Part shown: piece by piece, positions 12,801-27,250 of the stretch
Layout of the letters: every line of letters begins with the position of its first letter
Position numbering within the stretch: position 1 is the stretch's first letter
Assembly: GCA_004321885.1 (NCBI GenBank)
Contig: SCQK01000009.1
Coordinates: forward strand, 1-27,250
From: Patescibacteria group bacterium
GTDB lineage: Bacteria; Patescibacteriota; Patescibacteriia; Magasanikbacterales; GWA2-37-8
Direction: 5' to 3'
Length of the DNA: 27,250 nt
Notes under the pieces: model-generated
Databases searched by the model: none
The model's input: only the letters and a program-made list of their open reading frames with translations
What the model was told of the DNA's origin: nothing
Made by a program: the position numbers and the translations under genes

Positions 12801-13110
12801 CGGCACCCACGACTTTTTGTCGCGCCACGGAGTGGCCAGCAACTTTGTTTACAAAATCAGCGAGCAAAACAAGCCGAACGTGGAGGCAACGATTTCAGAA
12901 AAGCAAGTTGACGTAATCATTGTCATTCCGAGCGAAGCGAGGAATCTCTGTTTATCAAACGACAGCGACGGCTACAAAATTCGCCGGCTGGCCACGGACC
13001 GCCACATCCCACTTATCACCAACTCGCAAACCGCTATTTTGCTCTTGCGCTGTCTCACCGAACTTGACGCCAATAAAATGCCGATAAAATCGTGGCAAGA
13101 ATATTTTTAA
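9868..13110 (+). CDS. carB: carbamoyl-phosphate synthase large subunit
   Basis: 1080 aa. Two ATP-grasp halves ('[20 protein letters not shown]', '[20 protein letters not shown]') and a C-terminal MGS-like domain. Overlaps the carA 3' end by 26 nt. Confidence 0.95.
12481..12517 (+). repeat. family B element in-frame in carB
   Basis: 'cctccccc-tctta-gggggagg-ataaaggagggggtat' encodes '[13 protein letters not shown]'. Confidence 0.7.
12921..12946 (+). repeat. family A short hairpin element in-frame in carB
   Basis: 'tgtcattccgagcgaagcgaggaatc' encodes 'VIPSEARNL' in the MGS-like domain. Confidence 0.6.
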
Positions 13111-13191
13111 TGTCATTGCGAGGAGCGGAGCGACGAAGCAATCCCATACAATTAAGGGGATTGCCACGGCCCTGCGGGCCTCGCAATGACA
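13111..13191 (+). repeat. family A full-length palindromic element filling the carB-pyrB intergenic space
   Basis: Begins immediately after the carB TAA. Termini 'tgtcattgcgagg...cctcgcaatgaca' are 13-bp perfect inverted repeats. Inner hairpin 'gcaatccc...gggattgc'. Confidence 0.75.
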
Positions 13192-13199
13192 ATACAATT

Positions 13200-14120
13200 A
13201 TGCCAAACACACTCAAAGGCAGGGACATAATTTCCATCGCGGAACTTTCCAAGCCGGAAATTCTGCTGGTGCTAAAAAACGCGCAAGAATTAAAAAAACA
13301 CCCGCGCCCGAAACTGCTGGAAGGGCTGGTGATGGGCAGTTGTTTTTTTGAACCCAGCACGCGCACGCGCTTGTCGTTTGAAACAGCCATGCAGAAGTTG
13401 GGCGGACGGGTAATCGGCTTTGCCGACCCGGGCGTGACTTCGGCCAAGAAAGGCGAGTCGCTGTACGACGCCATAAAAATCATCGGCCAATACGTGGATG
13501 TCATCGCCATGCGCCATCCGTTGGAGGGAGCGGCGCGACGCGCGGCCGAGGCCACGGACAAACCAATCATCAACGGCGGCGACGGAGCCAACCAGCACCC
13601 CACCCAAACCCTGCTGGACTTGTTCACTATTCAAGAATGCCAGAAAAAATTAAGCAACCTTCATATCGCCATGGTCGGCGACCTGAAATATGGCCGCACC
13701 GTGCACTCGCTGGCCCAGGCGCTTACCCATTTTGGCGCCCGCCTGTATTTCGTGGCGCCCGACAGCTTGCAGATGCCCGCGTATATTTGCGATGAATTAA
13801 AAACCAAAGGCGTCAAATTCTCCATGCACAAAAAAATGGAAGAGGTAATCGGCAAAGTTGATATTTTTTACATGACCCGCATCCAGGGCGAACGTTTTGC
13901 CGACCCGATGGAGTACGAAAAAGTAAAAAACAGTTTCGTGCTCAAGGCCGACATGCTAAAAAACGCCAAACCAAACCTGAAAATCTTGCACCCCTTGCCG
14001 CGCGTGAACGAAATTGAAACAGCCATAGACAAAACAAAATTCGCCTACTATTTCCAGCAAGCGGAAAACGGGCTCTATGCCCGCCAGGCCCTGCTGGCGA
14101 TGGTGTTGGGAAAAATTTAA
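13200..14120 (+). CDS. pyrB: aspartate carbamoyltransferase catalytic subunit
   Basis: '[11 protein letters not shown]', 'HPTQTLLDL' and 'LHPLPR' motifs. Start taken at 'MPNTLKGRD' (ATG 13200), just after the element. The ORF-track 13092 start reads through the palindrome. Confidence 0.9.
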
Positions 14121-14123
14121 TAA

Positions 14124-14208
14124 TGTCATTGCGAGGCCCAAGGGGCCGAAGCAATCTCAGACAAGTAAGGGATTGCCACGTCGGCCTGCAGGCCTCCTCG
14201 CAATGACA
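14124..14208 (+). repeat. family A full-length palindromic element filling the pyrB-pyrI intergenic space
   Basis: 'tgtcattgcgagg...cctcctcgcaatgaca'. Same architecture as 13111-13191, with a different centre. Confidence 0.75.
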
Positions 14209-14216
14209 AAAATTTT

Positions 14217-14681
14217 ATGAAAGAAAAAAAACTTTTGGTCAACGCCATAAAAAACGGCACGGTGATAGACCACATCACCGCCGGTAGCGCGCTCAAAATC
14301 ATCCGCATCCTCAATCTGGCCAGCCACGAAAAAGTCGTGACGGTCGGGCTGAACTTGCCCAGCAAATCCATGGGGCGCAAGGACTTAATCAAAGTAGCCG
14401 AGCGCGAACTTTCACCCGATGAAGTAAGCAGCGTGGCCATTCTGGCGCCGCAAGCCAGCATCAACATCGTCAAAAATTACGAAATAGTTAAAAAATTTAA
14501 AATAAAACTACCGGAAAAAATTGAGAGCGTAGTTGTTTGCCCCAACCCGAAATGCATTACCAACCACGAGCCCATGGCCAGCGTGTTTTTTATTCTGCCC
14601 AACGGCAAACACATTAAACTGCGTTGTAAATATTGCGAAAAAGTTTTTGGTCACGATGATATCCGTGAATATAGAGTATAA
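14217..14681 (+). CDS. pyrI: aspartate carbamoyltransferase regulatory subunit
   Basis: 'AIKNGTVIDHI', 'GLNLPSKSMGRKDLIKV', zinc domain 'CPNPKCITNHEP...LRCKYCEKVF'. Confidence 0.9.
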   Translation: MKEKKLLVNAIKNGTVIDHITAGSALKIIRILNLASHEKVVTVGLNLPSKSMGRKDLIKVAERELSPDEVSSVAILAPQASINIVKNYEIVKKFKIKLPEKIESVVVCPNPKCITNHEPMASVFFILPNGKHIKLRCKYCEKVFGHDDIREYRV

Positions 14682-14690
14682 AAACACCAT

Positions 14691-15857
14691 ATGAGCCGGC
14701 TCATAACTTTACCCGCTTTGATTGACCCGCACGTGCATTTTCGTACCCCGGGTTCCGAGCACAAAGAGGATTGGATTTGCGGAGCGCGCGCCGCCTTCGC
14801 CGGCGGATACACCACGGTGATTGACATGCCGAACAACAACCCGCCGGCGATTGATGAAGAGTCATTGAATAACAAAATCAAGCTCGTGGAACAACAACTG
14901 TCATTCCTGCGAAAGCAGGAAGGGAGCCCTTCGGGCTCGGAATTCATTTCTGTCCACCCATATTTTTATCTCGGGGTTACTCCCCTCCCCCTTGATAAGG
15001 GGGAGGCAGGGTGGGGGTCGGCGGTAGCCCTCAAAATGTTCATGGGTTCCAGCACCGGCAGTTTGCTGGTGGACAAATACGAAGACCAGGAAAAAATATT
15101 CGCCAAAGCCGCTGAACTTGATTTGCTGGTGGCAGTGCACGCAGAAGATGATGAAACAATAAAAAATAATCAACTGTCATTCCAGCAAAAGCTGGAATCC
15201 ATCGCCAATCCAGTCGCTCTTCACTCGCAAATCCGCTCGCGTGAGGCGGCGATAAAAGCCGTGTCGCAAGCGATTGAACTGGCGGAAAAGACCGGCGCGC
15301 GATTATATATCTGCCATATTAGCACAAAGGAAGAAGCTGAATTGGTTAAATCGGCTAAAGAGCGCGGAGCCAAAATTTATGCCGAAGTCACACCGCATCA
15401 TTTGTTTCTGAACGAAAGCGCGTATGAAACATTGGAGACAAAAGCGCAAATGAATCCGCCTCTGCGCACGGCCGCGGACCAAGCGGCGCTCTGGCAGGCG
15501 ATAAACGACGGAGTAATAGACACCATCGGCACCGACCACGCTCCGCATACTTTGGAAGAAAAAAATCAACCATACCCCAAATCGCCTTCGGGCGTGCCCG
15601 GCATTGAGACATGTTTGCCGCTATTGCTCAACGCGTACAATCAGGGTAAAATCAGTTTAGAGAAAATAGTGGAATTATGCCGGACAAATCCGCAAAAAAT
15701 ATTCCGTTTGCCTGATAACAGTGACGAGGTGATTGTGGATTTGGATTTGGAAAAAGAGGTAAAAAATGAGAATTTAAAAACTAAATGCGGCTGGTCGCCC
15801 TTTGCTGGGTGGAATCTAAAGGGGTGGCCGATAAAAACGATAATTATGAAAAAGTAA
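14691..15857 (+). CDS. pyrC: dihydroorotase
   Basis: 'LIDPHVHFRTPG' metal-binding motif, 'GTDHAPH'. Contains three in-frame element insertions. The stop codon lies inside the left terminal repeat of a MITE-like element. Confidence 0.85.
   Translation: MSRLITLPALIDPHVHFRTPGSEHKEDWICGARAAFAGGYTTVIDMPNNNPPAIDEESLNNKIKLVEQQLSFLRKQEGSPSGSEFISVHPYFYLGVTPLPLDKGEAGWGSAVALKMFMGSSTGSLLVDKYEDQEKIFAKAAELDLLVAVHAEDDETIKNNQLSFQQKLESIANPVALHSQIRSREAAIKAVSQAIELAEKTGARLYICHISTKEEAELVKSAKERGAKIYAEVTPHHLFLNESAYETLETKAQMNPPLRTAADQAALWQAINDGVIDTIGTDHAPHTLEEKNQPYPKSPSGVPGIETCLPLLLNAYNQGKISLEKIVELCRTNPQKIFRLPDNSDEVIVDLDLEKEVKNENLKTKCGWSPFAGWNLKGWPIKTIIMKK
14899..14921 (+). repeat. family A short hairpin in-frame in pyrC
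   Basis: 'tgtcattcctgcgaaagcaggaa' is TTCCTGC-GAAA-GCAGGAA. Encodes 'SFLRKQE'. Followed by a small hairpin 'gagccc-ttc-gggctc'. Confidence 0.7.
14982..15018 (+). repeat. family B element in-frame in pyrC
   Basis: 'cccctccccc-ttgataa-gggggagg-cagggtgggggt' encodes 'PLPLDKGEAGWG'. Confidence 0.7.
15175..15198 (+). repeat. family A short hairpin in-frame in pyrC
   Basis: 'tgtcattccagcaaaagctggaat' is ATTCCAGC-AAAA-GCTGGAAT. Encodes 'LSFQQKLE'. Confidence 0.7.
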
Positions 15858-16014
15858 GAAATTTGAACGGTGGTCTCGCTCGGATAGTTACGGACTCGCT
15901 GTCGCTTTTTGACCCAATGAGCATAATCGCATGGATCAAAATGCCTTCGGCACCGCTCCAACTCGTCTCGTAACTGCACCTCGCTCGCCCAATGTTCAAA
16001 TTTCTTACTTTTTC
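15848..16014 (+). mobile_element. MITE-like element: 21-bp perfect terminal inverted repeats flanking about 125 bp
   Basis: Left 'gaaaaagtaagaaatttgaac' (15848-15868) is the exact reverse complement of right 'gttcaaatttcttactttttc' (15994-16014). The interior carries direct 'CTCGCTCG' repeats. The pyrC TAA is within the left repeat. Confidence 0.5.
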
Positions 16015-16028
16015 TCACATCCATTTTT

Positions 16029-16982
16029 ATGAAACATCTAATCTCCCTAAAGGAACAAACAAAAGAAGACCTGCTGGAAATTTTGGATTTAGCAAAAAAA
16101 GTTAAAGCCACATACAAGGCCGGTGAGACGATGGAGCCATTAAAAAACAAAACCCTGCTCATGCTTTTTCAAAAAAGCTCCACGCGCACGCGCCTGTCGT
16201 TTGAGGCCGGCATAACCGAACTGGGCGGACACGCCATTTTTCTGGACAGCCGCGCCACGCAATTTTCGCTCACTGATTTCGGCGATGAAATAAAAGCCGT
16301 AATGCGCTTTGGCGACATCCTGATGTTTCGGGCCATGAAAGCGGCGGACGTGGAAAAGGCGGCGGGCTTCAATCAGATTCCGGTGATAGACGGTTGCAGT
16401 GAAAAATATCACCCGTGCCAGGCCTTGGGAGACATTTTGACAATGAGTGAGCATGCCAATGGACTGGAAAACGTGAAAAAAATCACTTGGCTGGGAATTG
16501 AAAACAACGTCTCTAACACCCTGACGCTGGCCGGCGCCAAACTGGGAATTGAAGTGACCATCGCCGCGCCCGAAGCCAACCCGGCCAGCGTGGACGCGGA
16601 GTTAAACGCCCAGGCCTCTGCCGTCGGCAAAGTGACACGCACTTTGAATTTGGCCGAAGCGCTGGCTGGCGCGAATTTCATCCACACCGACACCTGGATG
16701 GATATGGAATTTTTTTCCGACGGAAAAGTGAAGCCGCAATTTGAAGCCGAATACGAACGGCGCAAACGGGTGTTCACGCCTTTTCAACTAAACGCGGGCT
16801 TAATAAACACCCACGCCCCGCAAGCGAAAATTATGCACTGCATGCCGTGTCATGTGGGCTATGAAATTTCACGCGACGCCATAGACCATCCCAATTCAAT
16901 AATTTTTGACCAGGCGGAAAATCGCAAACACATCCAAAAAGCGATTATTCTTTGGCTACTTGGTATTCCCTCCCCTTTATAA
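16029..16982 (+). CDS. ornithine-carbamoyltransferase-family transcarbamylase paralog (substrate uncertain)
   Basis: 'STRTRLSFE', 'HPCQALGDILT', 'HCMPC' (OTC HCLP-type) and a C-terminal 'SIIFDQAENRKH' closely like OTCase. The ornithine-binding 'DxxxSMG' is 'DTWMDME'. Confidence 0.75.
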   Translation: MKHLISLKEQTKEDLLEILDLAKKVKATYKAGETMEPLKNKTLLMLFQKSSTRTRLSFEAGITELGGHAIFLDSRATQFSLTDFGDEIKAVMRFGDILMFRAMKAADVEKAAGFNQIPVIDGCSEKYHPCQALGDILTMSEHANGLENVKKITWLGIENNVSNTLTLAGAKLGIEVTIAAPEANPASVDAELNAQASAVGKVTRTLNLAEALAGANFIHTDTWMDMEFFSDGKVKPQFEAEYERRKRVFTPFQLNAGLINTHAPQAKIMHCMPCHVGYEISRDAIDHPNSIIFDQAENRKHIQKAIILWLLGIPSPL

Positions 16983-17004
16983 GGGGAGGGTTAGGGTGGG
17001 GTAT
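16968..17004 (+). repeat. family B element spanning the OTC-paralog stop and the pyrD RBS
   Basis: 'ccctcccc-tttataa-ggggaggg-ttagggtggggtat'. The TAA stop of the upstream gene is inside the hairpin loop. GGGTGGGG lies 5 nt before the pyrD ATG. Confidence 0.7.
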
Positions 17005-17005
17005 T

Positions 17006-17917
17006 ATGCTCACCACAACTTTCCTCAACAAAACTTTCGCCAATCCCATCGTGCTCGCCTCGGGCATTCTTGGCGTGTCGGCCGCCAGTTTGGCGCGGGC
17101 GGTGAAAGATGGCTGCGGCGGAGTGACGGCCAAGTCGGTCTCGCTTGAACCGCGCTCCGGTCATCCCAATCCCACCACCGCCGGCATGGAGCATTTTTTC
17201 ATCAACGCGGTTGGACTTTCCAACCCGGGCGTGGACGCGGCGGTGGAAGAACTGAAAAAATTCAAAGAATTATCCGTCTCACCGCTCATCGGCAGTATTT
17301 TCGCGGGCACGCCTGAGGAGTTCGCCGTCGTGACGGAAAAAATTTGCGCGGCGCCAATTGATTTTCTGGAAATCAATGTTTCCTGCCCGAACGTAAGCAA
17401 AGAATTCGGCAAACCGTTTGCTTACTCCACCGAAGCCGTGGAAATTATCACCAAAAAAGTAAAAGCCAAAGCGACTGTGCCGATAATAATAAAACTTTCT
17501 CCCAATGCCTGGAACATAGACGAAATCGCGCTGGCGGCCGAAACCGCCGGCGCCGACGCCCTTTGCGCCGTCAACACCATCAGCGGCATGATAATTGACT
17601 GCCACAGCCGCAAACCGATATTGCACAACAAACAGGGCGGGGTTTCGGGTCCGGCGCTGCTGCCTATCGCGCTAAAATGCGTGTATGACATTTACAAAAA
17701 AGTGAAAATTCCCATCATTGGCACAGGCGGCATTTGTTCTGGCGAAGACGCGCTGGCCATGATTATGGCCGGAGCGGCTTTGTTGGGTGTTGGCTCGGCC
17801 GTGTATTTCCGCGGGAGCGAGGTGTTTGAAAAAATTTGCGAGGAGATGGAGAAAATAATGGAAGAGGAAGGGATAAAAAATTTGGAGGAAATCCGCGGCG
17901 CGGCGCACTCATCATGA
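17006..17917 (+). CDS. pyrD: dihydroorotate dehydrogenase (class 1B) catalytic subunit
   Basis: 'NPIVLASGILG', 'GLSNPGVDA', 'NVSCPN', 'IIGTGGICSGEDA'. Start taken at 'MLTTTF' after the element-supplied RBS. Confidence 0.85.
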   Translation: MLTTTFLNKTFANPIVLASGILGVSAASLARAVKDGCGGVTAKSVSLEPRSGHPNPTTAGMEHFFINAVGLSNPGVDAAVEELKKFKELSVSPLIGSIFAGTPEEFAVVTEKICAAPIDFLEINVSCPNVSKEFGKPFAYSTEAVEIITKKVKAKATVPIIIKLSPNAWNIDEIALAAETAGADALCAVNTISGMIIDCHSRKPILHNKQGGVSGPALLPIALKCVYDIYKKVKIPIIGTGGICSGEDALAMIMAGAALLGVGSAVYFRGSEVFEKICEEMEKIMEEEGIKNLEEIRGAAHSS

Positions 17918-17921
17918 ATGT

Positions 17922-18067
17922 CCCCCTCCCCTATTTGCGAAAAGAGTGAGAGAAAAAGCAAACTTGTTGCTTTTTCCGAACGAATGAGCAAATATCCGCA
18001 GATATTAGGGGAGGGATAAACCCCGTTAGAGGTCTGCAGACCTCTAACGGGGTAAAGGGTGGGGTTA
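17922..18067 (+). repeat. compound family B region in the pyrD-pyrK intergenic space
   Basis: 'cccctcccc' (17922) pairs with 'ggggaggg' (18008) across a 70-nt insert that contains AAAAAGCAA-acttg-TTGCTTTTT. This is followed by a perfect hairpin 'ccccgttagaggtctgcagacctctaacgggg' (18021-18052). A 'taaagggtggggtt' SD-like tail precedes the pyrK ATG. Confidence 0.6.
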
Positions 18068-18072
18068 AACGT

Positions 18073-18945
18073 ATGGATAGTACAAAATTCTTAAAAATAG
18101 AAAAAATAACAGACGAAACCCCGTTCGTCAAAACATTCTATTTTAATCATCGCCTAAACAGCAAGCCCGGGCAATTTGTGATGCTCTGGCTACCGGGAAT
18201 TGACCAAAAACCGTTTTCCATCGGCTGGGAAGATGAAAACGGCTTTGCCCTGACTGTGTTCAATCGCGGACCGACGACGAACAAACTGTTTGAAATGAAA
18301 GCCGGCGAACGAGTGGGCATTAGCGGGCCCTACGGTACTTCTTTTTCCGTGCGCCCAAACACGCGCTATATCATGGTCGCCGGCGGCTATGGCGCCGCGC
18401 CTCTTTCTTTTTTGGCCAAGCAGCTATCTGTCATTGCGAGGAGCGTAGCGACGAAGCAATCCCAATCTACAAAAATTGATTTCCTCCTCGGCGCCCGCTC
18501 GGCCGAACACGTGCTATTTGAAGACCGTCTGTCAAAATTACCCAACACCAAAATCCACATCGCCACCGACGACGGCAGTAAGGGACATAAGGGATTTGTG
18601 ACCGACCTGCTTTCATCTGTCATTCCTGCGAAAGCAGGAATCCACGACAACTCACTGGATGCCCGTTTTCACGGGCATGACATATTCGTCTGCACTTGCG
18701 GCCCCGAACTGATGGAAAAAAAAGTTTTGGACGCTTGCAACGTCGCCGGCGTGGAATGCGAAATCAGCATTGAACGCTACATGAAATGCGGCGTGGGCGT
18801 GTGCGGACAATGCGCCGTGGACGACCTGGGCCTGCATATGTGCAAAGAAGGGCCGGTGGTAAGCGGCGCGCTCGCCAGTCAAATTAAAGAGTTCGGCGTC
18901 TACCATCGCGACAAAAGCGGGAAAAAAGTATACTTCGAAAATTAA
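18073..18945 (+). CDS. pyrK: dihydroorotate dehydrogenase electron-transfer (FAD/2Fe-2S) subunit
   Basis: FAD/NAD-binding fold and C-terminal 'CGVGVCGQCAV' cluster motif. Two in-frame family A insertions. Confidence 0.85.
   Translation: MDSTKFLKIEKITDETPFVKTFYFNHRLNSKPGQFVMLWLPGIDQKPFSIGWEDENGFALTVFNRGPTTNKLFEMKAGERVGISGPYGTSFSVRPNTRYIMVAGGYGAAPLSFLAKQLSVIARSVATKQSQSTKIDFLLGARSAEHVLFEDRLSKLPNTKIHIATDDGSKGHKGFVTDLLSSVIPAKAGIHDNSLDARFHGHDIFVCTCGPELMEKKVLDACNVAGVECEISIERYMKCGVGVCGQCAVDDLGLHMCKEGPVVSGALASQIKEFGVYHRDKSGKKVYFEN
18429..18463 (+). repeat. family A half-element in-frame in pyrK
   Basis: 'tgtcattgcgaggagcgtagcgacgaagcaatccc' matches the left 35 nt of the 13111 element with one mismatch. 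Encodes 'SVIARSVATKQSQ'. Confidence 0.75.
18618..18642 (+). repeat. family A short hairpin in-frame in pyrK
   Basis: 'tgtcattcctgcgaaagcaggaatc' matches the pyrC copy at 14899. Encodes 'SVIPAKAGIH'. Confidence 0.75.
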
Positions 18946-18961
18946 GTCCAAAGCCAATTAT

Positions 18962-19006
18962 AAAAAAAGAAAAAGCTCTCATTCCGTGCGATGACGAAAC
19001 GAGAGC
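18962..19006 (-). terminator. rho-independent terminator for the - strand GC-rich gene
   Basis: - strand: GCTCTCGTTTCG-loop-CGGAATGAGAGC (imperfect 11-bp stem) followed by TTTTTCTTTTTTT. Confidence 0.5.
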
Positions 19007-19082
19007 GAAACGAACCGAGGGACCAAGTGACCCAAGCCCTTCCGATTTGGCGAAAGGGCTGAGGCACCAAGGATCCCAGGGC

Positions 19083-19730
19083 CTACTTGCCGCGAGGAAG
19101 GAGATAGGAGGCGCCGAAGCCGTAGACAACCCAGCGGACGTCCAGCACCCAGCGAGCGCCGACCCAGGAGAGACAGGCCACGTAGAGGCCGCCACGCCGG
19201 CCGCGCAAAAGCGTGCCCGGCAGGACGATGATCTTGTCCTGCATCTCCTTCGGGATCTCGGCCTGGCACTCCAGCATACGCTTGCCATCCACCAGGCCGT
19301 AGTTGGCCTTGAGGACGACGGCGCGGGCGCGCATGACCTCGCCGTTGACATAGCCCGGGTCATCGGGCTCGAGGAAGGACACATACTCCAAGTCCTTCAC
19401 CTCGAACTGCGACGGGGCCACATCCTCCACCACCTCCCACTTGCGCTTCTTGCCTGCCTCGTCCTCGTACTCGGGGATGAGGTCGGCGGCGAGCAACTCG
19501 GACGGGAGCTGGTCGCGCTTGATCGATGCCGCCACGCTTTCGCCGTTTTCCTCGCCGATCGGCTCCAGCTTCAGCCGGAGCTTGCCGGCGCGAAACAGCT
19601 CCACGTTCTGCGCGCCCGTCTCACATCCGCCGAACTCCGCCCACAGCTTGAGGATCATGGCCCAGATCTGCTTCCCTGTCAGACCCTCCAGCACGGCCTC
19701 CAGTGTCTTCCCTTCCACTCTCGAACTCAT
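19083..19730 (-). CDS. hypothetical protein in a GC-rich (about 62% GC) inserted segment
   Basis: ATG with AAGGAG 7 nt upstream. Balanced E/K/D/L composition, unlike the Ala/Arg/Leu-rich overlapping frames. Terminator downstream. Interrupts pyrK...pyrE. Confidence 0.5.
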   Translation of the reverse strand: MSSRVEGKTLEAVLEGLTGKQIWAMILKLWAEFGGCETGAQNVELFRAGKLRLKLEPIGEENGESVAASIKRDQLPSELLAADLIPEYEDEAGKKRKWEVVEDVAPSQFEVKDLEYVSFLEPDDPGYVNGEVMRARAVVLKANYGLVDGKRMLECQAEIPKEMQDKIIVLPGTLLRGRRGGLYVACLSWVGARWVLDVRWVVYGFGASYLLPRGK

Positions 19731-19895
19731 GGCTGTTCTCCTTTCCGGCGCCTCGCCAGAATGGCAATTTGCCCCGCCCCGGGGCTCGGGTTTTTATGCT
19801 AAAAATAACAAAGAGCTAACAGCGATTTATATCACAACATTACTGCTTCTGTCAAGCTAAACACCGTCACAACCGCCATATCCTTTCACAAACCC

Positions 19896-19928
19896 TTGCG
19901 CGATTATCTGCGCGATTCTTGCGCGATT
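19896..19928 (+). promoter_or_regulatory. three direct repeats of TGCGCGATT (11-12 bp spacing) just upstream of the fic -10
   Basis: 'ttgcgcgatt' 19896, 'ctgcgcgatt' 19908, 'ttgcgcgatt' 19919. Operator- or iteron-like. Confidence 0.5.
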
Positions 19929-19938
19929 TAATTTTTTA

Positions 19939-19947
19939 TGGTATGAT
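19939..19947 (+). promoter_or_regulatory. extended -10 promoter TGGTATGAT for fic-pyrE-pyrF
   Basis: TGnTATGAT 29 nt upstream of the fic ATG. Same box type as 'TGGTATAAT' at 6712-6720. Confidence 0.45.
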
Positions 19948-19975
19948 ATTGGCAAGGAATTCTTCGGCCTAAACT

Positions 19976-21031
19976 ATGTTTGAACCAAAGTATAAAATCA
20001 CCAATCAAATCATCCAGATGCTCACCGCCATCGCCGAGGCCAAGGCGATTATTGAACGCGCGCGCCTTTTGCCGAAGCACGAACTCAAACTGCGACGCCA
20101 GGCCCTTCTCCGCATGACCCACAGCTCCACGGCCATAGAAGGCAACCGGCTGAATATGCGCGAAGTGGAGGCCGTGGCGGCGCGCAAAAAAGTGGATGCC
20201 CCGGAACGCGAAATCTATGAAGTAAAAAACTACCTGGAAGCGATTCGCTACATTGAAAAAGTCGTAAAAAACAACCAGCCAATCACCGAAAAGATTATCT
20301 TACAAATTCACCGGCTTGTAACCGACAAAACTTTGCCGGCACATTCCTCGGGGCAATATCGCAAAGGGCCGGTGTATGTGGTGCGGCGCTGGAGAGACGG
20401 CCGCCAGGAAGTTTTGTATACCGCGGCTGGCGCCGGACAAGTCCCCGGTCTTATGGCCGGCTTAACGCGCTGGCTCGCTGAAAGTGAAACGCAAAATATC
20501 AGCCCAGTCATCGTGGCCGGTATCGCGCACCAGGAAATCGCGGCTATTCACCCCTTTGCCGACGGTAATGGCCGCACCGCGCGCGCCCTGGCCACGCTTA
20601 TCCTTTACCGACGCGGCTACGACTTTCGCCGCCTTTTCGCCCTGGAAGATTTCTACAACGAAGACAGGCCGTCGTATTATCGCGCCATCAACGTCGGCAA
20701 AAACTACCAACAGCGCCGCGTTGATTTTACGCCATGGCTGGAATATTTTGTGCGCGGATTTAAGGAAGAAATTATTAAAGTGAAAAATAACGTGCTCACA
20801 CTATCGGCCAAAAAGGTTGACAAAAAAATTGAAGCGCAAATTTATCTTGATAAAGACCAGCTCAAAATTTTGGAGTTTGCCGACCAGATGGGAAAAATAT
20901 CCGTGGGCGACGTGGTGGATATTTTGAGTTGTCCCAAACGCACCGCCCAATCGTATCTACAAAAATTAAAAAAACTGAAAATTATCCGGCAAGTCGGCAA
21001 AGGGCCGGCCAGCGGATATATAATAGCGTGA
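19976..21031 (+). CDS. fic: Fic/Doc family protein (class II, N-terminal inhibitory helix) with C-terminal winged-helix domain
   Basis: Fic motif 'HPFADGNGRTARAL'. Inhibitory motif 'STAIEG' ([ST]xxxE[GN]) near the N-terminus. C-terminal HTH-like 'ISVGDVVDILSCPKRTAQSYLQKL'. Stop is 6 nt before the pyrE ATG. Confidence 0.85.
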   Translation: MFEPKYKITNQIIQMLTAIAEAKAIIERARLLPKHELKLRRQALLRMTHSSTAIEGNRLNMREVEAVAARKKVDAPEREIYEVKNYLEAIRYIEKVVKNNQPITEKIILQIHRLVTDKTLPAHSSGQYRKGPVYVVRRWRDGRQEVLYTAAGAGQVPGLMAGLTRWLAESETQNISPVIVAGIAHQEIAAIHPFADGNGRTARALATLILYRRGYDFRRLFALEDFYNEDRPSYYRAINVGKNYQQRRVDFTPWLEYFVRGFKEEIIKVKNNVLTLSAKKVDKKIEAQIYLDKDQLKILEFADQMGKISVGDVVDILSCPKRTAQSYLQKLKKLKIIRQVGKGPASGYIIA

Positions 21032-21037
21032 TTTTTT

Positions 21038-21634
21038 ATGCTCAAGAAACTAATCATCAAACTCCACGAAATCAACGCCGTCAAATTCGGGGAATTCAAA
21101 TTAAAAAGCGGAATAATGTCGCCGATATACATTGACTTGCGGGTGACGATTTCTTATCCCGAAGTTTTGAAAATGGTGGCCGAGGCCATGTGGGAAAAAG
21201 TCAAAGACGTTAATTTTGATTTGATTTGCGGAGTGCCTTACACCGCCCTGCCCATTGCCACGGCCATTTCTCTGGCGCATGACAAACCAATGATCATGCG
21301 GCGCAAGGAAGTAAAGGACTATGGCACGAAAAAAGCGATTGAAGGCGCGTTTGTCGCCGGACAAAAAGTATTGGTGGTGGAGGATTTGGTGACGAGCGGC
21401 AGTAGTGTGTTTGAAACGATTGAACCTTTACAACACGAAGGATTGACGGTGAGCGATATTGTGGTGTTGGTGGACCGCGAACAGGGCGGCCGCAAGCATC
21501 TGGCGGAAAAAGGGTTTAATTTACATTCGGTTTTGACGATTTCGGAAATGTTAGCTGTTTTGGTAGAAGCCAGTAAATTGGACAACGCGATGGCGGATAA
21601 GGTGAAAGATTTTATAAACGCGAATCAAGTATAA
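21038..21634 (+). CDS. pyrE: orotate phosphoribosyltransferase
   Basis: 'KFGEFKLKSGIMSPIYIDLR' and PRPP motif 'VLVVEDLVTSGSS'. Confidence 0.9.
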   Translation: MLKKLIIKLHEINAVKFGEFKLKSGIMSPIYIDLRVTISYPEVLKMVAEAMWEKVKDVNFDLICGVPYTALPIATAISLAHDKPMIMRRKEVKDYGTKKAIEGAFVAGQKVLVVEDLVTSGSSVFETIEPLQHEGLTVSDIVVLVDREQGGRKHLAEKGFNLHSVLTISEMLAVLVEASKLDNAMADKVKDFINANQV

Positions 21635-21640
21635 CAAATA

Positions 21641-21754
21641 CCCCTCCCCCACCCTCCCCTTATAAAGGGGAGGGTGCAATTTTCCTCCCCCTTTATAAGG
21701 GGGAGGCTCGCCACCACACCAAATGCTTTGGTGTGGTGGCGAGGAGGGGGTAAA
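21641..21754 (+). repeat. two tandem family B hairpins plus a 14-bp perfect hairpin and SD tail in the pyrE-pyrF spacer
   Basis: 'ccctcccc-ttataaa-ggggaggg', 'cctccccc-tttataa-gggggagg', 'ctcgccaccacacc-aaatgcttt-ggtgtggtggcgag' (21707-21743), then 'gagggggtaaaaatt' before ATG. Confidence 0.7.
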
Positions 21755-21758
21755 AATT

Positions 21759-22520
21759 ATGAAATACAAACAACGCGCCGAGATGTGCGCCAATCCGACC
21801 GCCAAAAAATTACTTGAATTGATGAATGAGAAACAAACAAACCTGGCGCTGGCCGCGGACGTGACGACCAAAAAAGAACTGCTGGAAATCGCCGACACGT
21901 TGGGGCCGGAAATCTGCGTGCTTAAAACGCACATTGATATTATTGGGGATTTTGATTCTGATTTAATCATCCAGCTTCAGCGCTTATCAGAAAAACACAA
22001 TTTTCTTTTTTTTGAAGACCGCAAATTCGCTGATATTGGAAACACGGTCATGCACCAATACCAAGACGGCATTTATCACATCGCGGACTGGGCGCATATC
22101 GTGAACGCGCACACTGTTCCGGGTCCTGGAATTATTGATGGATTAAAAGAAGTGGGTCTGCCCAAAGGGCGCGGGTTGCTATTACTGGCGGAAATGAGCT
22201 CCAAAGGCGCTTTGGCGAGCGGCGCCTACACCGAAAAAACGATAAAAATGGCGCAGGCCAACAAGGATTTTGTCGTCGGCTTTATCACTATGCGCCAGCT
22301 AATTGACGACCCGTGTTTTATAAACTTCACGCCCGGGGTTCAGCTCGCCCAAGGAGCGGACGCGCTGGGCCAGCAATACAACACTCCGGAAAACGTCATC
22401 GCCAAACAAAAATCCGACATTATTATTGTCGGACGAGGCATTTACAAGGCCGCGGACCCGGTCGCCGAAGCGAAAAAATATCGCGAGGCCGGTTGGAAGG
22501 CCTACACTTCTATTATTTAA
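21759..22520 (+). CDS. pyrF: orotidine-5'-phosphate decarboxylase, eukaryote (URA3)-like type
   Basis: 'YKQRAE...[20 protein letters not shown]...[10 protein letters not shown]', '[16 protein letters not shown]', '[11 protein letters not shown]'. Long collinear similarity to fungal URA3 as I recall it. Start 'MKYKQRAE' after the element RBS. Confidence 0.85.
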
Positions 22521-23085
22521 TCCTCTGCAGGGCTTCTTTAAGCAACTGCTCGCTGGTTTTACCGTTAGCGTCCAGCTTTTTCACCGCCTCGCGCGCTTCC
22601 TGCGTAGAATAGCCCAACGCTATCAACCCGTCAACCACATCTCCCAATAAACCGCCCTCACTCGTTTCTTCGGCCAGCGCGCCCGCGGCCATTTTCTCTT
22701 TGAGTTCCACCACGATTCTCTCGGCGGTCTTTCGGCCGATGCCGCTTACTTTGGTAAGGTAATCAACATCGCCGCGGCTCACCGCTGAAGCGATTTCATC
22801 AACTGTTCCCAAAGACAGCAAGTGCATGGCGGTTTTCGGCCCAATGCCGCTCACGTTCAAAAACTTCAAAAACAAAGCCCGTTCGCCCTCGTTTTGAAAT
22901 CCGAACAAATCCATCGCGTTTTCGCGCACGGCCAAATAAGTAAAAACTTCCGTTTCCACGCCGACAGGCCACTTCTTCGCCGCTCCCGAATTAACAAACA
23001 AAACATACCCCACCCCGCCCGAGGTCATGAGCGTAATTTCATTACCGCTATTTTTCATTATTTTCCCGCGCAAAATTGAAATCAT
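22513..23085 (-). CDS. ruvA: Holliday junction branch-migration complex subunit RuvA
   Basis: 'MISILRGKI...GGVGYVLFV' OB domain, two HhH '[14 protein letters not shown]' and '[14 protein letters not shown]', C-terminal domain III. Overlaps the pyrF 3' end by 8 nt (convergent). Confidence 0.85.
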
Positions 23086-23121
23086 AAAAAATTAATAACC
23101 AAAAAATCTTAATTAGCAAAC

Positions 23122-24156
23122 TTAAAGTTCTACCCTCACCGAGAGACGGAAACCGCGCTTGGGATCCGGATGCCCGGCATCGTCCCCGTCAAACCCCGCC
23201 TGGGAAAAGCCCGGAACGAAGCACGCGTTCGGCACATCGCCGACTGAAACCGGCAAGTTGATAAAACGCGTCCAGGTATTGCTGTCTATTGGTCTAAGCG
23301 TGGTTGGTTGGGAACCGGTCGGGAATTTTTTTTTGATTAACTGGCTCTGAATGGTTTGCAGGGCGCCGTATTCGTGGGGGTTGGTAATATGGGCCTGCGA
23401 CAGCTTAGAGGCCGCGCGTTCCCGGTTTATAGCGGCGAATTCCGTTTTTTGATCATCCACTGTTTTATTGCAGGTGCGGGGGTCTGGTTTTTGACTGGGA
23501 TTCATCATTGCTATGTAGGGCCTGTCTGGAACGGCTTCCACCAACTCGGCGGCTTTGTCGTTGATAAGCCCGACGAAATGATTCCATTCCAGAAAGGCAT
23601 CGTTCACGTCTCGCTCCTGGCTTTCTTTAATCCAAATCGGCTTAAAGGCCTTTTTGAATTGCTCAACCGTGGTGTTTAGCTGGGTTGTCTTATCCGGCAT
23701 AAATATGGGAATGGAGCCGGCCGCGATCTCCTGTTCTATTGTTTTTCGCTTTTCGGGCGTGAGACGGCCAAAATCAGCCGTGCCGATATTGCCAGCCCAG
23801 GCCTCAAGATTCATAGCACGGTACATTTGTTGGTTGTCTTGCCGGACCTGCATTAAATCCCAGGTCATTTCTTTGTGTTCGTTGGCAATTGGATTTTGCT
23901 CAATACCCGGAATGCCGCTTTCAAGCAGGGCTTCGCGGAAGGGGTTGGTGGCGTTATGGACAGTAAACCGGCCCAAACGCTCTCTTTCTAATTGAGCGAG
24001 TTCATCCGGTGAAACTGTCCGGTACGGGCCACCATTGGCGTTTTGCGGAATATCTGATGGCTCGTCTGGCTGAGGCTGCTCTCCGACAATGCGGCGGTGA
24101 AGCCGATCGACTATTCCTTCGGCGATTCCCTCAATTCTTCCTATTCTTCGTGGCAT
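23122..24156 (-). CDS. hypothetical protein (no recognisable motifs)
   Basis: 344-aa ORF between nif3 and ruvA on the same strand. Normal composition. Start abuts a family B element. Confidence 0.5.
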   Translation of the reverse strand: MPRRIGRIEGIAEGIVDRLHRRIVGEQPQPDEPSDIPQNANGGPYRTVSPDELAQLERERLGRFTVHNATNPFREALLESGIPGIEQNPIANEHKEMTWDLMQVRQDNQQMYRAMNLEAWAGNIGTADFGRLTPEKRKTIEQEIAAGSIPIFMPDKTTQLNTTVEQFKKAFKPIWIKESQERDVNDAFLEWNHFVGLINDKAAELVEAVPDRPYIAMMNPSQKPDPRTCNKTVDDQKTEFAAINRERAASKLSQAHITNPHEYGALQTIQSQLIKKKFPTGSQPTTLRPIDSNTWTRFINLPVSVGDVPNACFVPGFSQAGFDGDDAGHPDPKRGFRLSVRVEL

Positions 24157-24164
24157 ACGTTTAA

Positions 24165-24250
24165 ACCCCCTCCTCTGTCCTCCACCTAAAAGGGGGAGAA
24201 AAGTGACAGTGTTACCCCTCCCTCGCCCTCCCCTTATAAAGGGGAGGGAA
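24165..24250 (+). repeat. compound family B element in the nif3-hypothetical spacer
   Basis: 'cccccctcctctgtcctccacctaaaagggggag...cccctccctcgccctcccc-ttataaa-ggggaggg'. Confidence 0.6.
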
Positions 24251-24252
24251 CT

Positions 24253-25215
24253 TTATTTCCTTCCTCTCTTCACCCGAATAAGCCCCCCGCAGGGCACTAC
24301 TTCCACTCCGCGCTTTTCCAGCTCGTCCAAAAACAAATTCATGCCCAGCGAATCCGAGGAAATATGCCCGGCAATGACCACGTTCATGTGAAACTCGTTG
24401 GCCCGCTCCATCGCGTCGTCTTTCATGTGCATTCCGACAATCGTGCTAATGCCGGCGCGCGACAATTCCTGATAAACTTTATTAGACGGATTGGTGCCGC
24501 CGGTCATTTCCAGCAGATACTTGCCCACGCGATGCTTGGGGTTGCCGGTAAAAATCTTGGGTCCGGCCCCGCGCTTCTTTGCCTCGCGGTATTCGGGAAT
24601 CTCCAACAGGCACTTTAGTAAATCCCCGACTGTCTCGGGCTTTTTCTTTTTCAAAAAATCAGCCAAAAATTTATGCACCAAATTATCGGTGATGGTGTGC
24701 GCGTTCATCAGGCTCATGCCCAAAATACGGGCGACGTCTATAATCCGGTAATGATTGGCCGGGTGCACGCTGCGACCCACTTCTTTTATTCTTTCTTCCA
24801 TCAATTTTTCCGCGACATGAACTGGCATGCCCAACTCCTCATAGACCTCCACGGCCAAATCCATCACTCCGTGCAAACCAGCCAGCCCGCCGCCGATGGG
24901 ATGGTGCGCCAACACCAAATCAATCGGTTTGCCGCGTTCGCCCATTTGCGAGGCCAACAAAATCTCGCTAGCGCCGATATCAATGCCGGCCATCAGCCGT
25001 TTCACGCCGGTCTTGGGGTCGCCGCAATGAATACGGCTGTCGTCGTAGGGATTGAACAATTGCTCCGCGTCAAAATATTCTTTTTCATCGGGCTTCAAAC
25101 CGTTATACTCCTTTTCCACGCGCCCCAGATATTTTTCCACACCCTTGGGCCCGCGCGGGTCGGCCGCCGCGGCCATTTTCAACCCCAAAGCAAAAATTTG
25201 TCTAATAGTTAACAT
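24253..25215 (-). CDS. Nif3-family dinuclear metal-centre protein (DUF34/YqfO-like)
   Basis: 'DLVLAHHPIGG' and 'VVIAGHISSD' metal-ligand motifs, with characteristic length. Confidence 0.75.
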   Translation of the reverse strand: MLTIRQIFALGLKMAAAADPRGPKGVEKYLGRVEKEYNGLKPDEKEYFDAEQLFNPYDDSRIHCGDPKTGVKRLMAGIDIGASEILLASQMGERGKPIDLVLAHHPIGGGLAGLHGVMDLAVEVYEELGMPVHVAEKLMEERIKEVGRSVHPANHYRIIDVARILGMSLMNAHTITDNLVHKFLADFLKKKKPETVGDLLKCLLEIPEYREAKKRGAGPKIFTGNPKHRVGKYLLEMTGGTNPSNKVYQELSRAGISTIVGMHMKDDAMERANEFHMNVVIAGHISSDSLGMNLFLDELEKRGVEVVPCGGLIRVKRGRK

Positions 25216-25233
25216 AATATGTACCTAACTTTT

Positions 25234-25270
25234 CTCTCCCCTTTATAAGGGGAGAGACAGAGAGGGGTAA
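25234..25270 (+). repeat. family B element upstream of nif3
   Basis: 'ctctcccc-tttataa-ggggagag-acagagaggggtaat'. Confidence 0.65.
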
Positions 25271-25313
25271 TTTAAAAATTATAATGCTTCAATATTATGT
25301 CAAACCGACGGGC

Positions 25314-25342
25314 TTGTCAAACCGGTGCCGGCCTGATATACT
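25314..25342 (+). promoter_or_regulatory. sigma70-like promoter TTGTCA, 17 nt, TATACT
   Basis: -35 at 25314-25319 and -10 at 25337-25342. Drives the small acidic ORF or RNA ending at the 25533 terminator. Confidence 0.5.
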
Positions 25343-25391
25343 ACACCATACTTTTCCCGCACCACTGCGGGTGAAAAATATATCTCTCAAA

Positions 25392-25520
25392 TATGTTGGA
25401 GAATATAAACACATTCGAAGACGACGAAGAAAATTTGGATAGCGAAGAGGAGGAAGAGGTGGATGGCGTCCCGAAACCTGGCAGTGATGAGGATGCGGAT
25501 GACGACGAAGACAGCATGTA
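25392..25520 (+). CDS. small (42 aa) extremely acidic ORF 'MLENINTFEDDEENLDSEEEEEVDGVPKPGSDEDADDDEDSM'
   Basis: Promoter upstream and intrinsic terminator downstream. No clear SD, so it could instead be a small RNA. Confidence 0.3.
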
Positions 25521-25523
25521 ATT

Positions 25524-25559
25524 AAAAAGAATCCCCGCCTTGGGCGGGGTTCTTTTTTT
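25524..25559. terminator. bidirectional intrinsic terminator CCCCGCC-ttg-GGCGGGG flanked by A-tract and T-tract
   Basis: 'aaaaagaatccccgccttgggcggggttcttttttt'. Serves the convergent small ORF (+) and efp (-). Confidence 0.7.
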
Positions 25560-26118
25560 ACGCTCTGGTGGAGTATTCGCCCGTTTCGGTATTTACCAGA
25601 ATCTCTTCGCCTTCTTTTATGAATATCGGGGCCTGAATTTTTAATCCGTTTTCCAAAGTGATTTCTTTGGTGACGTTGCCCGAAGCGCTGTCGCCCTTGA
25701 CCGCCGGCGGCGCGTCAATCACCTTGTATTGAATCTTTTTCGGTATCTGCGCGGAAACCGGCCGGCCCTCGTACAGCCCCACGACCACGTCTATCCCTTC
25801 TTTCAGATACTTGGCCTCGTCGCCGAGCAAATCGTTGTTCATCTCTATCTGCTCATAGGTGCTCATGTTCATGAAAGCGAAATTGGCGCCGCTTTTGTAC
25901 AAATACTGCATAGAATGAAACTCCACCTCCACGATATCCACGCTTTCGCTGGTTTTGTAGGTTATTTCAATCACCTTGCCCGAGGCCAAACTTTTCATCC
26001 GCACGCGCACAAAAGCCGCGCCCTTGCCAGGGTTGACGTGCTGAAAATCCACCACGACAAACAAATCATTCTGGTGCCTGATGACTACCCCTTTTCTGAT
26101 TTCGCTGGTAGGGGCCAT
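25558..26118 (-). CDS. efp: translation elongation factor P
   Basis: 'VDFQHVNPGKGAAFVRVRMK' (modifiable Lys in the PGKG loop). Three OB/KOW-like domains. 186 aa. Confidence 0.9.
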   Translation of the reverse strand: MAPTSEIRKGVVIRHQNDLFVVVDFQHVNPGKGAAFVRVRMKSLASGKVIEITYKTSESVDIVEVEFHSMQYLYKSGANFAFMNMSTYEQIEMNNDLLGDEAKYLKEGIDVVVGLYEGRPVSAQIPKKIQYKVIDAPPAVKGDSASGNVTKEITLENGLKIQAPIFIKEGEEILVNTETGEYSTRA

Positions 26119-26130
26119 AAAAAAACTCTA

Positions 26131-26241
26131 AATGTCAAAATCCAAATTTCCAATATCAAATCAATTTTTAATGTCAAATTTCAAATGTCCAATTTGACAT
26201 TTGGATTTTTGTCATTGATTTGACATTGGAAATTTGACATT
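26131..26241. repeat. array of 9-11-nt 'TTTGACATT' repeats: three in - orientation, then three or four in + orientation
   Basis: 'aatgtcaaa' at 26131, 26170 and 26184 (variant). 'tttgacatt' at 26193, 26218 and 26233. 'tttgtcatt' at 26207. Near-palindromic centre 'aaatgtccaatttgacattt'. Lies in the efp upstream region and runs into the epmA 3' end. Confidence 0.7.
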
Positions 26242-27234
26242 AATATTCTCTATTTGGTCTTTCACGCTTTGAAACATTACCTCGTTTATATCCCTGGCTC
26301 CGGTAAACAATAATACCATGCGGTCAACCCCCAAGGCAATACCGGCCATGTCTTGGCGCGCTGCCTCGGGCAAGCCGGCAATCGCGGCGATAAAATCCGG
26401 GTCAACGCCCCAAACCGGCTTGCCCGCCCCCAGCCGCTTGTTTTTGTCTTCCTCCAAACGCTTTTTTTGCTCGGCCGCGTCGGTCAGTTCGCCAAAGGCG
26501 TTGGCCAATTCCAAACCGCCAATATACAATTCAAACCTCTCGGCGTAACGTTGGTCATGTTCGCACAAACGATTGAGCGAGGTCATCTGCTGGGGATAAT
26601 CATACACAAAAACCGGCCACTCGGCGCCCAGCTTTGGTTCTATTTCATTCAAAAAAATCTTAAAAAACAAATCTTCATAGGCGTCGCGCGGGTCCGCGGC
26701 GAAACCGCGCGCCAAAACCAGCTCGCGCATTTTTTCCAGCTCCAAATATTCATCCAAATTCACGCCAAGATATTTTTGCCACACTTCTTTCATGCTTAGC
26801 CGGTCCCAAACCCCCTCCTTTATTCTCCCCCTTGGGAGAGGAAGTTGAGAAGCAACAAACTTAAACAAATTTTCCGTGTCGTCCATTATCTCGGTCAGGG
26901 TTCCGGGGGCGCGGTACCACTCAATCATGGTAAATTCGGTGTTGTGCGTGCGGCCAAACTCTTCGTAGTCGCGAAAAACCTTGCCAATTTCAAAAATTTT
27001 TTCATAACCCGCAGCCAACAATTTTTTCAAGCCGTATTCGGGCGAAGTGCGCAGATAAAATTGTTCGGTCACGCCGTTTGGAGCGTGGAAAACCGCTGAC
27101 ACCGGGTTCAAATACGGCTCCTGGCTGGCCAAACGCACAGCCACGGGCGTGTCGGTCTCCACAAAACCCGCGCGCCAAAAAAATTCCCGGATTAACTTTA
27201 TTATCTGAATTCGCGCGTCATATATCCCGCGCAA
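26212..27234 (-). CDS. epmA: EF-P lysine beta-lysyltransferase (class II lysyl-tRNA-synthetase-like, GenX/PoxA)
   Basis: 'TSPEYGLKKLLAAGYEKIFEIGKVFRDYEEFGRTHNTEFTMIEWYRA' (class II motifs 1 and 2), 'GVDRMVLL'. Directly upstream of efp. Contains an in-frame family B element. The last roughly 13 aa are encoded by the repeat array. Confidence 0.8.
   Translation of the reverse strand: MRGIYDARIQIIKLIREFFWRAGFVETDTPVAVRLASQEPYLNPVSAVFHAPNGVTEQFYLRTSPEYGLKKLLAAGYEKIFEIGKVFRDYEEFGRTHNTEFTMIEWYRAPGTLTEIMDDTENLFKFVASQLPLPRGRIKEGVWDRLSMKEVWQKYLGVNLDEYLELEKMRELVLARGFAADPRDAYEDLFFKIFLNEIEPKLGAEWPVFVYDYPQQMTSLNRLCEHDQRYAERFELYIGGLELANAFGELTDAAEQKKRLEEDKNKRLGAGKPVWGVDPDFIAAIAGLPEAARQDMAGIALGVDRMVLLFTGARDINEVMFQSVKDQIENINVKFPMSNQ
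26808..26846 (-). repeat. family B element in-frame in epmA (- orientation)
   Basis: - strand 'cctctccc-aag-ggggagaa-taaaggagggggt' encodes '[13 protein letters not shown]'. Same tail as the carB copy. Confidence 0.7.
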
Positions 27235-27250
27235 TCTTGGATTGTCTTTC

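Follow-up and report, generated by a model that had tools for sequence, protein, structure and literature searches.

What is a short GC-rich segment with an opposite-strand gene doing inside a cluster of pyrimidine biosynthesis genes? The question is raised by contig SCQK01000009.1 of a Patescibacteria metagenome-assembled genome (MAG; GenBank assembly GCA_004321885.1), whose 27,250 bp were analyzed as a whole and are here called the window. Between pyrK and fic, the minus strand encodes a protein of 215 amino acids (aa), recorded at NCBI as hypothetical protein EPN28_02740 (Table 1). An earlier note on this DNA described the segment as an inserted GC-rich island. We report here a computational analysis according to which the island probably encodes a C-type-lectin-fold variable protein of a diversity-generating retroelement (DGR) and carries target elements in cis, namely, a variable region (VR), an end resembling the initiation of mutagenic homing (IMH) sequence, and a hairpin or cruciform, followed by a terminator. 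The evidence consists of the family membership of the protein, its fold, the target-site elements, and a hypervariability that is confined to the 3′ part of the gene and matches the template adenines of the nearest relative.

Protein family

Neither the 215-aa protein nor its family alignment had a match in Pfam, PHROGs, NCBIfam, or the sequences in PDB. The earlier description of the gene as hypothetical was incomplete; the gene is not anonymous, being a member of a DGR variable-protein family with target-site elements at its 3′ end. Database searches having given nothing, this identity came from the genomic context of homologues. The family is large, unnamed, and without a Pfam model. A profile search over 1.84 billion cluster representatives yielded 2,490 family representatives at an E value of ≤1e-3 and 194 at ≤1e-30 (50% identity clusters), mostly 140 to 220 aa long. 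By structure prediction, the window protein has a C-type lectin fold.

Loci recovered by genome scanning, designated here by L numbers, are mostly from low-GC Patescibacteria MAGs, and two are labeled Gammaproteobacteria. Homologues P0017, P0019, and P0003 and those in loci L011, L015, L016, L029, and L031 are followed immediately by a bAvd gene, on the opposite strand, and an RVT_1 gene; a reverse transcriptase (RT) gene and an Avd gene are adjacent to the homologues in L004, L006, L011, L015, L016, L029, and L031. The last 110 to 126 nucleotides (nt) of the homologue recur 485 to 650 nt downstream with 85 to 91% identity (L004, L006, L016, and L024), as expected of a VR and its template repeat (TR). 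In the aligned pairs of L004, L006, and L024, nearly all mismatches run from an adenine in the TR to any nucleotide in the VR and fall mostly in AAC codons. A TR/VR pair with adenine-specific mismatches is the defining signature of DGRs (PMC5758913). Judged by this signature, the Patescibacteria family members are DGR variable proteins. The window protein shares 26 to 59% identity with the targets of the DGR cassettes in L004, L006, L015, L016, L024, L026, L029, and L031.

The family varies in its architecture. An N-terminal segment of 48 residues is common, at 73% identity, to P0019 and a DGR target whose C-terminal domain is different (L001, 9708-10451; L004, 8007-8150); N-terminal modules therefore appear to have been exchanged between variable-protein families. 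Other members have signal- or lipoprotein-like N termini (L010 and L013) or none. The usual proteins have a single domain; the top scorer of the profile search, P0142 (517 aa), matches the family domain in four stretches, apparently in tandem. In L011, a family member directly beside avd (9920-10642) extends past the usual stop into TGCCAGTTTCTTCATACTCC and a hairpin, a 3′ flank of the kind that TRs typically have; the 237 bp between the RT gene and the end of that contig yielded no separate TR. The arrangement looks like a VR-TR deletion that fused the target to the TR 3′ flank and inactivated the cassette, and the GC content at third codon positions (GC3) of this gene has fallen to 0.62. In the public record of L031 (Magasanikbacteria), a 125-aa antisense open reading frame (ORF) at 2901-3278 (minus strand) is annotated over the real plus-strand family member at about 2667-3215, an artefact of the type that the plus-strand ORF represents in the window.

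Three genomes have a tyrosine recombinase gene just upstream of the DGR cassette (L004, 6573-7553; L006, 316-1233; L029, 1203-2120). The same three have rpsO-NYN-pnp genes after the cassette, and L004 and L029 also have a PAP2/LssY_C gene on the upstream side. The site with rpsO-NYN-pnp is a conserved chromosomal site of the cassette.

Variable region

The TRs of L004 and L006 align to positions 19085-19210 of the window, the core of its VR. The behavior of this region among close relatives was read from L009, a contig of 1,028 bp that stems from an unrelated run and spans the interval between the fic start and the pyrK end. It represents the same locus, with the gene in the same position, and is the only sequence with which the window was compared in this way. 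Around the VR, the two are about 99 to 100% identical; the 188 nt nearest fic are the same in both, and the 5′ flank has 4 differences in 255 nt. The gene itself contains 5 differences in its first 458 nt and 43 in its last 190 nt (Fisher P = 1e-19), so that 43 of the 48 differences in the ORF are inside the VR zone, where 23% of positions differ. All but 1 of the 28 amino acid differences fall in residues 152-210. Between these two sequences, hypervariability is therefore confined to the VR.

The differences were compared with the TR of L024, the closest relative that has one (its target is 59% identical). The strains differ at 17 of the 25 positions at which this TR has an adenine and at 13 of the 93 others (odds ratio, 13; P = 3e-7). 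Among its codons with A in position 1 or 2, 14 of 16 are variable between the strains. One strain has A at 22 of the 43 differences, a proportion estimated at about 50% for two independent random draws at template adenines. Taken from two sequences and a relative's template, the pattern points to recent hypermutation.

Target site

Family VRs end in TGCAAGT, and family TRs end in TGCCAGT followed by CTCTTCA. The VR of the window ends in ...GGCAAGTAG / ...CGCGGCAAGTAG, with the target-type CAAGT where family TRs have CCAGT; the IMH at the VR end is thus distinct from the IMH* at the TR end.

An inverted repeat lies just downstream of the VR. The 60 to 70 nt after the stop codon take the same minimum free energy (MFE) hairpin architecture in the window (z = -2.0) and in 8 relatives, and in most relatives a separate second hairpin with a T run, analogous to the window terminator, follows the long one. 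Plain MAFFT with RNAalifold missed the hairpin of the post-stop region, the sequences having been aligned out of register; this was solved by a covariance model, R2, which was derived from three relatives with one round of iteration. R2 matches the window at 19017-19077 (minus strand; 22.9 bits; E value, about 1e-3), its sole match in the contig. It also matches directly after the target stop codon in L004, L006, L012, L015, L016, L018, L023, L024, L029, and L031 and after the L001 target, which belongs to a different protein family. In the family alignment fitted to the model, 86.6% of cells are paired, compared with 74.5% in shuffles and 28 to 55% with the partners slid, and 13 of the 21 hairpin pairs vary on both sides; these figures lean toward structure because the alignment was fitted to it. 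A scan of 18700-20200 with Rfam gave chance-level matches only.

Efficient retrohoming in phage BPP-1 depends on a GC-rich inverted repeat immediately past the VR, the structure of which counts for more than the sequence (PMC3240598). The window element occupies the same position as this phage hairpin, which consists of a stem of 8 bp and a GRNA loop of 4 nt (PMC3240598). The family element differs in being an interrupted hairpin of about 60 to 70 nt with CYYGG/CCRRG-like steps and an apical loop of 4 to 9 nt that is not GRNA. From its position and its recurrence in the family, we consider 19010-19082 a candidate DGR target-site hairpin or cruciform.

Retroelement and template

In the proposed mechanism, a DGR at another place in the genome would supply Avd, RT, and template-repeat RNA. 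Reverse transcription of the template would put random bases opposite its adenines, and the resulting cDNA would replace the VR, recoding about 20 to 27 surface residues of the binding face of the lectin fold. The cognate template would be expected to end in CGCGGCCAGT, followed by a CTCTTCA-like sequence. We infer that this genome contains such a template and RT, that both act in trans, and that the hairpin has the role known from BPP-1. Other DGRs are established to act in trans on targets remote from them (PMC5758913), and metagenome surveys that need a VR next to an RT miss remote targets (PMC8144416). DGRs of the candidate phyla radiation (CPR) were regarded as mostly single-target in an earlier genomic survey (PMC5758913).

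Several results weigh against a target in current use. The 27,250-bp contig contains no RT, Avd, TR, or TR-type 3′ flank (TGCCAGTCTCTTCA); the TR was searched for by repeat finding, by sensitive blastn with the VR and three family TRs, and with the TR 3′-flank motif at 3 mismatches. The distance free of RT and Avd is 19 kb on one side of the gene and 7.5 kb on the other, to the contig ends. A search of JGI metagenomes for the cognate template with a degenerate VR/TR pattern gave 4 unrelated high-GC matches, and a search of IMG/VR with the predicted TR end gave 8 unrelated matches. Among the 120 listed of at least 8,000 RT homologues, the EPN28 locus tag is absent, and none is tied to the MAG; two Patescibacteria RT records (L026 and L028) belong to other assemblies. 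In genome VMGB01, the DGR template matches a different target and not the family paralogues; TR-less, presumably inactive copies therefore exist. The remote paralogues of that genome (L014 and L017) were considered as proof of remote targeting and rejected, having no match to its TR. Finally, 10 of the differences between the window and L009 inside the VR zone are at third codon positions, and about 8 to 10% of the 3′ flank differs. Pure adenine mutagenesis predicts neither, so allelic recombination or different templates may contribute.

With no RT, Avd, or template in the contig, the gene is either a nonadjacent target served in trans or a recently orphaned one. In the orphan case, the retroelement that served the gene has been lost, the gene now evolves ordinarily, and its differences from L009 either predate the loss or come from recombination between alleles. 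The missing retroelement in 27 kb fits this, as do the TR-less paralogues in other genomes (L001/P0018, L014, L017, and L018) and the L011 target with its dead-cassette-like fusion; the third-position differences and the more divergent 3′ flank would be consistent with exchange between alleles. However, the gene retains an intact ORF, IMH-like end, and hairpin, and its GC3 of 0.875 is that of TR-bearing members, whereas TR-less copies have drifted to 0.31 to 0.60. Strains that are otherwise nearly identical also differ at almost a quarter of VR positions, preferentially at template adenines. We therefore consider an orphaned gene unlikely. A target that is active or was so recently is favored because its cis elements are intact, the strain pattern is like that of fresh hypermutation, and its composition is like that of template-bearing members.

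Base composition

The GC-rich island in the pyr cluster is real. The GC content of 19040-19790 is 64.8%, compared with 49.4% for the whole contig, 48.8% for 1-18949, and 49.6% for 19976-27250; in a sliding-window analysis, it is the GC maximum of the contig among all 750-bp and 450-bp windows (z, about 3.2 to 3.5). The edges of the enrichment are abrupt, at about 18990 and about 19790. The bounds proposed before, 18950-19975, therefore take in some 180 bp of AT-rich DNA from the intergenic region toward fic. The gene order is carA, carB, ATCase (aspartate carbamoyltransferase)-like gene, pyrC, ATCase-like gene, pyrD, pyrK, island, Fic gene, pyrE, and pyrF, all on the plus strand except the island gene. 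The domains underlying these names include FAD/NAD/Fe-S domains for pyrK, phosphoribosyltransferase for pyrE, and orotidine monophosphate decarboxylase for pyrF. The Fic gene, of normal GC content, is also placed between pyrK and pyrE and offers another explanation of why the pyr cluster is divided.

The same excess accompanies targets in other loci. In L004, L006, L015, L016, L023, L024, and L029, the target has 61 to 69% GC and a GC3 of 0.83 to 0.95, with 36 to 44% GC in avd and RT and 40 to 49% in the rest of the locus. The L031 target has 64% GC and a GC3 of 0.63, next to an RT gene of 32% GC. L026, a distant member in a 34% GC locus, has 46% GC and a GC3 of 0.48, where the GC3 of its neighbors is about 0.25. 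Two targets of other protein families with VR/TR pairs behave likewise, at 56% GC and a GC3 of 0.73 in a 40% GC locus (L001) and at 59% GC and a GC3 of 0.74 beside an RT gene of 39% GC (L030). Enrichment over the whole target gene, and not the adjacent RT and avd, was thus found in 11 of 11 other DGR-bearing loci examined, and in 13 of 18 loci the target gene is where GC content peaks across the entire locus. The GC3 is 0.62 to 0.95 in targets and 0.25 to 0.46 in RT and avd, only some hundreds of bases distant, the exception being the 0.48 in a host with a GC3 near 0.25. The window gene is within the range of members with a cognate TR (0.83 to 0.95). Lower values occur in copies without a matching template, namely, P0018 in L001 and those in L018, L017, and L014 (with L011, 0.31 to 0.62).

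The GC richness of the window gene (GC3, 87.5%) is therefore a conserved property of such Patescibacteria targets and not a mark of recent import. The earlier interpretation as an inserted segment of foreign composition, for which relatives with the same gene and similar GC content had been named as counterevidence, is not supported: L009 has the gene in the same position, distant homologues have the same GC excess, and the DGR targets of at least 11 other Patescibacteria loci have it next to host-like RT and avd genes. Recent acquisition, in which the pyrK-fic interval received about 1 kb of DNA from a high-GC donor, carrying an unrelated hypothetical gene, would account for the GC maximum with sharp edges and for the interruption of a codirectional pyr cluster. 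It could also draw on an imperfect 27-nt direct repeat, 70% identical, at both edges of the pyrK-fic interval (18939-18965, at the pyrK stop, and 19971-19997, at the fic start). This repeat may be chance in AT-rich DNA or the scar of the event that placed the gene there; as a single weak pair, it was judged insufficient as an insertion scar. Against acquisition, the contig contains no integrase, transposase, or tRNA gene, and the loci recovered are mostly from low-GC hosts. The targets keep their GC excess through protein divergence to 26 to 60% identity while their own neighboring RT and avd genes are host-like. Target GC content also rises with host GC content, from 46% in a 34% GC locus to 61 to 68% in 40 to 49% GC loci, which does not fit one donor pool. 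A foreign origin of the island is accordingly very improbable.

Horizontally acquired genomic islands and this locus are alike in their atypical composition, sharp borders, and interruption of an operon-like cluster. They differ in that the locus has no mobility genes, tRNA genes, or convincing repeats and in that the composition anomaly is family specific and long maintained, so it is not a transient donor signature.

Third-position A amounts to 0.6 to 7% in the GC-rich family members, but adenine avoidance as the sole cause of the GC excess was rejected because third-position T is depleted too (4 to 19%). Candidate causes are GC-biased repair around repeated cDNA replacement, selection against A (and T) across the whole transcript, and a requirement for stable duplex DNA around the cruciform. 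In the DGR literature, GC-rich flanks are noted for the mutagenic region, and an atypical GC content of entire DGRs is taken to indicate transfer (PMC5758913; also PMC8144416, PMC11661182, and PMC10053308). A target-specific, gene-wide GC excess is mentioned in none of these four papers; Paul et al. 2017, on CPR DGRs, is outside that comparison. We suggest tentatively, with rather less than even confidence, that in Patescibacteria the status of DGR target goes with a strong, gene-wide, and long-kept GC enrichment of the target alone, which fades after loss of the template and points to an undescribed consequence or requirement of retrohoming. A GC-rich gene outside the family and with no obvious VR is present in the approximately 40% GC Parcubacteria genome of L014 (15993-16760, minus strand; 59% GC; GC3, 0.82); GC islands in these genomes are therefore not exclusively DGR targets.

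Reading frame and expression signals

Two long ORFs overlap in the island. The minus-strand ORF has a coding-like GC content by codon position (0.67/0.39/0.875), and that of the plus-strand ORF is its mirror (0.83/0.43/0.67). The first search gave 21 homologues of the minus-strand ORF, which also has a confident predicted domain; the 251-aa plus-strand ORF had no homologue-based support and no match in Pfam or PHROGs. The minus-strand ORF is taken as the gene because only it has homologues and a confident predicted structure. The earlier note had made the same choice, with the plus-strand ORF as antisense noise, and had given the gene a ribosome-binding site and terminator of its own; each of these points was borne out (Table 1). 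That the plus-strand ORF is instead the expressed gene, codirectional with the pyr cluster, can be dismissed: it is the longer of the two and lies on the operon strand, but its codon-position GC is a mirror image and it has no family matches, and its rival has thousands of homologues, a confident fold, a ribosome-binding site, a promoter-like site, and a terminator.

The promoter-like site of the gene is identical in L009; the A at position 6 of its -10 hexamer kept it out of a strict consensus scan. The stem-loop at 19771-19797 is located in the 5′ untranslated region (UTR) of the gene. On the plus strand, it may act as a terminator that stops read-through from pyrK, antisense to the gene. 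The palindrome GCCCCGGGGC, previously placed between divergent promoters, does exist but is better read as part of this 5′-UTR stem-loop with its T run than as an operator between such promoters.

Table 1. Coordinates of features in the 27,250-bp window
Feature	Position	Strand	Description
Gene for 215-aa DGR-type variable protein	19083-19730	-	Residues 1-70, helical N-terminal region, poorly predicted; about 75-215, predicted C-type-lectin-fold domain
Variable region (VR)	19085-19275	-	Core 19085-19210 aligns with TRs of relatives; hypervariable zone to 19275 (residues 152-210)
IMH-like VR 3′ end	19083-19097	-	CCTCGCGGCAAGTAG, stop codon included; from VR/TR alignments of L004, L006, and L024 with the window
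Long interrupted inverted repeat	19010-19082	-	Begins 1-3 nt after stop; apical 10-bp stem 19035-19044 / 19051-19060, 6-nt loop
Intrinsic terminator	18965-19006	-	13-bp stem (19006-18975), then T run, TTTTTCTTTT; sequence scan; predicted function
Shine-Dalgarno AAGGAG	19738-19743	-	7 nt upstream of ATG; read from sequence
Promoter-like site of minus-strand gene	19826-19855	-	TTGACA (19855-19850), 18-nt spacer, TATAAA (19831-19826); read from sequence
GC stem-loop, then TTTTT	19771-19797	+	Contains GCCCCGGGGC palindrome (19781-19790); terminator-like matches 19771-19785 and 19778-19790
Antisense shadow ORF, 251 aa, not a gene	19047-19802	+	Mirror GC pattern; no Pfam/PHROG match
Palindromic repeats	9091-9112, 9221-9271		carA
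Palindromic repeats	12478-12515		carB
Palindromic repeats	13108-13201; 14121-14171		
Palindromic repeats	14894-14925, 14981-15018, 15170-15201		pyrC
Palindromic repeats	16966-17003		
Palindromic repeats	18426-18476, 18613-18644		pyrK
Palindromic repeats	21638-21719; 24212-24250; 25232-25270		

Other features of the contig

On the fic side of the island, (CT)TGCGCGATT direct repeats occur at a spacing of about 11 to 12 nt (19895-19905, 19908-19916, and 19918-19928). They overlap the -35 region of what is likely to be the promoter of fic and are a possible operator for the C-terminal winged-helix domain of Fic.

Three families of short palindromic repeats are distributed across the contig: CCTCCCCTTATAAGGGGAGG together with GGGTGGGGTA, TGTCATTGCGAGG...GAAGCAATC, and TGTCATTCCTGCGAAAGCAGGAATCCA. 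Several are inside the carA, carB, pyrC, and pyrK ORFs with the frame kept; in pyrK, the translation through the repeats reads ...SVIARSVATKQSQS... and ...VIPAKAGIHDNS... They resemble in-frame palindromic elements such as those of Rickettsia.

The cluster contains two aspartate/ornithine carbamoyltransferase-like genes. The one at 13092-14120 matches OTCace_N and OTCace in Pfam; the one at 16029-16982 is recognizable solely by its sequence and by a 50-nt stretch shared with the first copy (13358-13407 / 16181-16230, 76% identical). Positions 51-3269 encode a 1,072-aa protein with a SNF2-type helicase and a C-terminal methyltransferase domain.

Relation to known systems

The Patescibacteria (CPR) DGR cassettes, which contain a target, a TR, avd on the opposite strand, and RT, have the VR layout, the end motif, and the post-VR hairpin in common with the window. 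Their RTs form a clade restricted to Patescibacteria (PMC8144416). The window copy differs in standing alone in a pyrimidine cluster beside Fic, with no TR, avd, or RT within the 19 kb and 7.5 kb on its two sides. Compared with the BPP-1 DGR (Mtd, TR, Avd, and Brt), it has no adjacent RT, Avd, or TR, and its host is cellular rather than a phage. Treponema denticola has a DGR with nonadjacent targets; its TvpA has no detectable sequence similarity to the window protein, which, as read from its sequence, differs also in having no visible signal peptide or lipobox. The host is different as well, being a member of the Patescibacteria, where remote targets are not considered typical (PMC5758913).

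The analysis assigns an unannotated hypothetical gene to a large, unnamed family of DGR variable proteins and adds a Patescibacteria case in which a DGR target lies at a distance from any RT. What goes beyond routine annotation is the remote or orphan status of a target in this group and the recurrent, unexplained GC enrichment of targets. A composition anomaly that is usually read as horizontal transfer is here a recurrent property of target genes, which matters for island prediction and for gene calling, as the wrong-strand call in L031 illustrates. Should DGR activity be the cause of the GC excess, the excess may give new insight into how retrohoming works, and if the reading of GC enrichment proposed here is true, GC islands would be a simple marker for remote or orphan DGR targets. 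The long post-VR hairpin, common to targets of different protein families, is a concrete candidate element for target recognition in this DGR clade.

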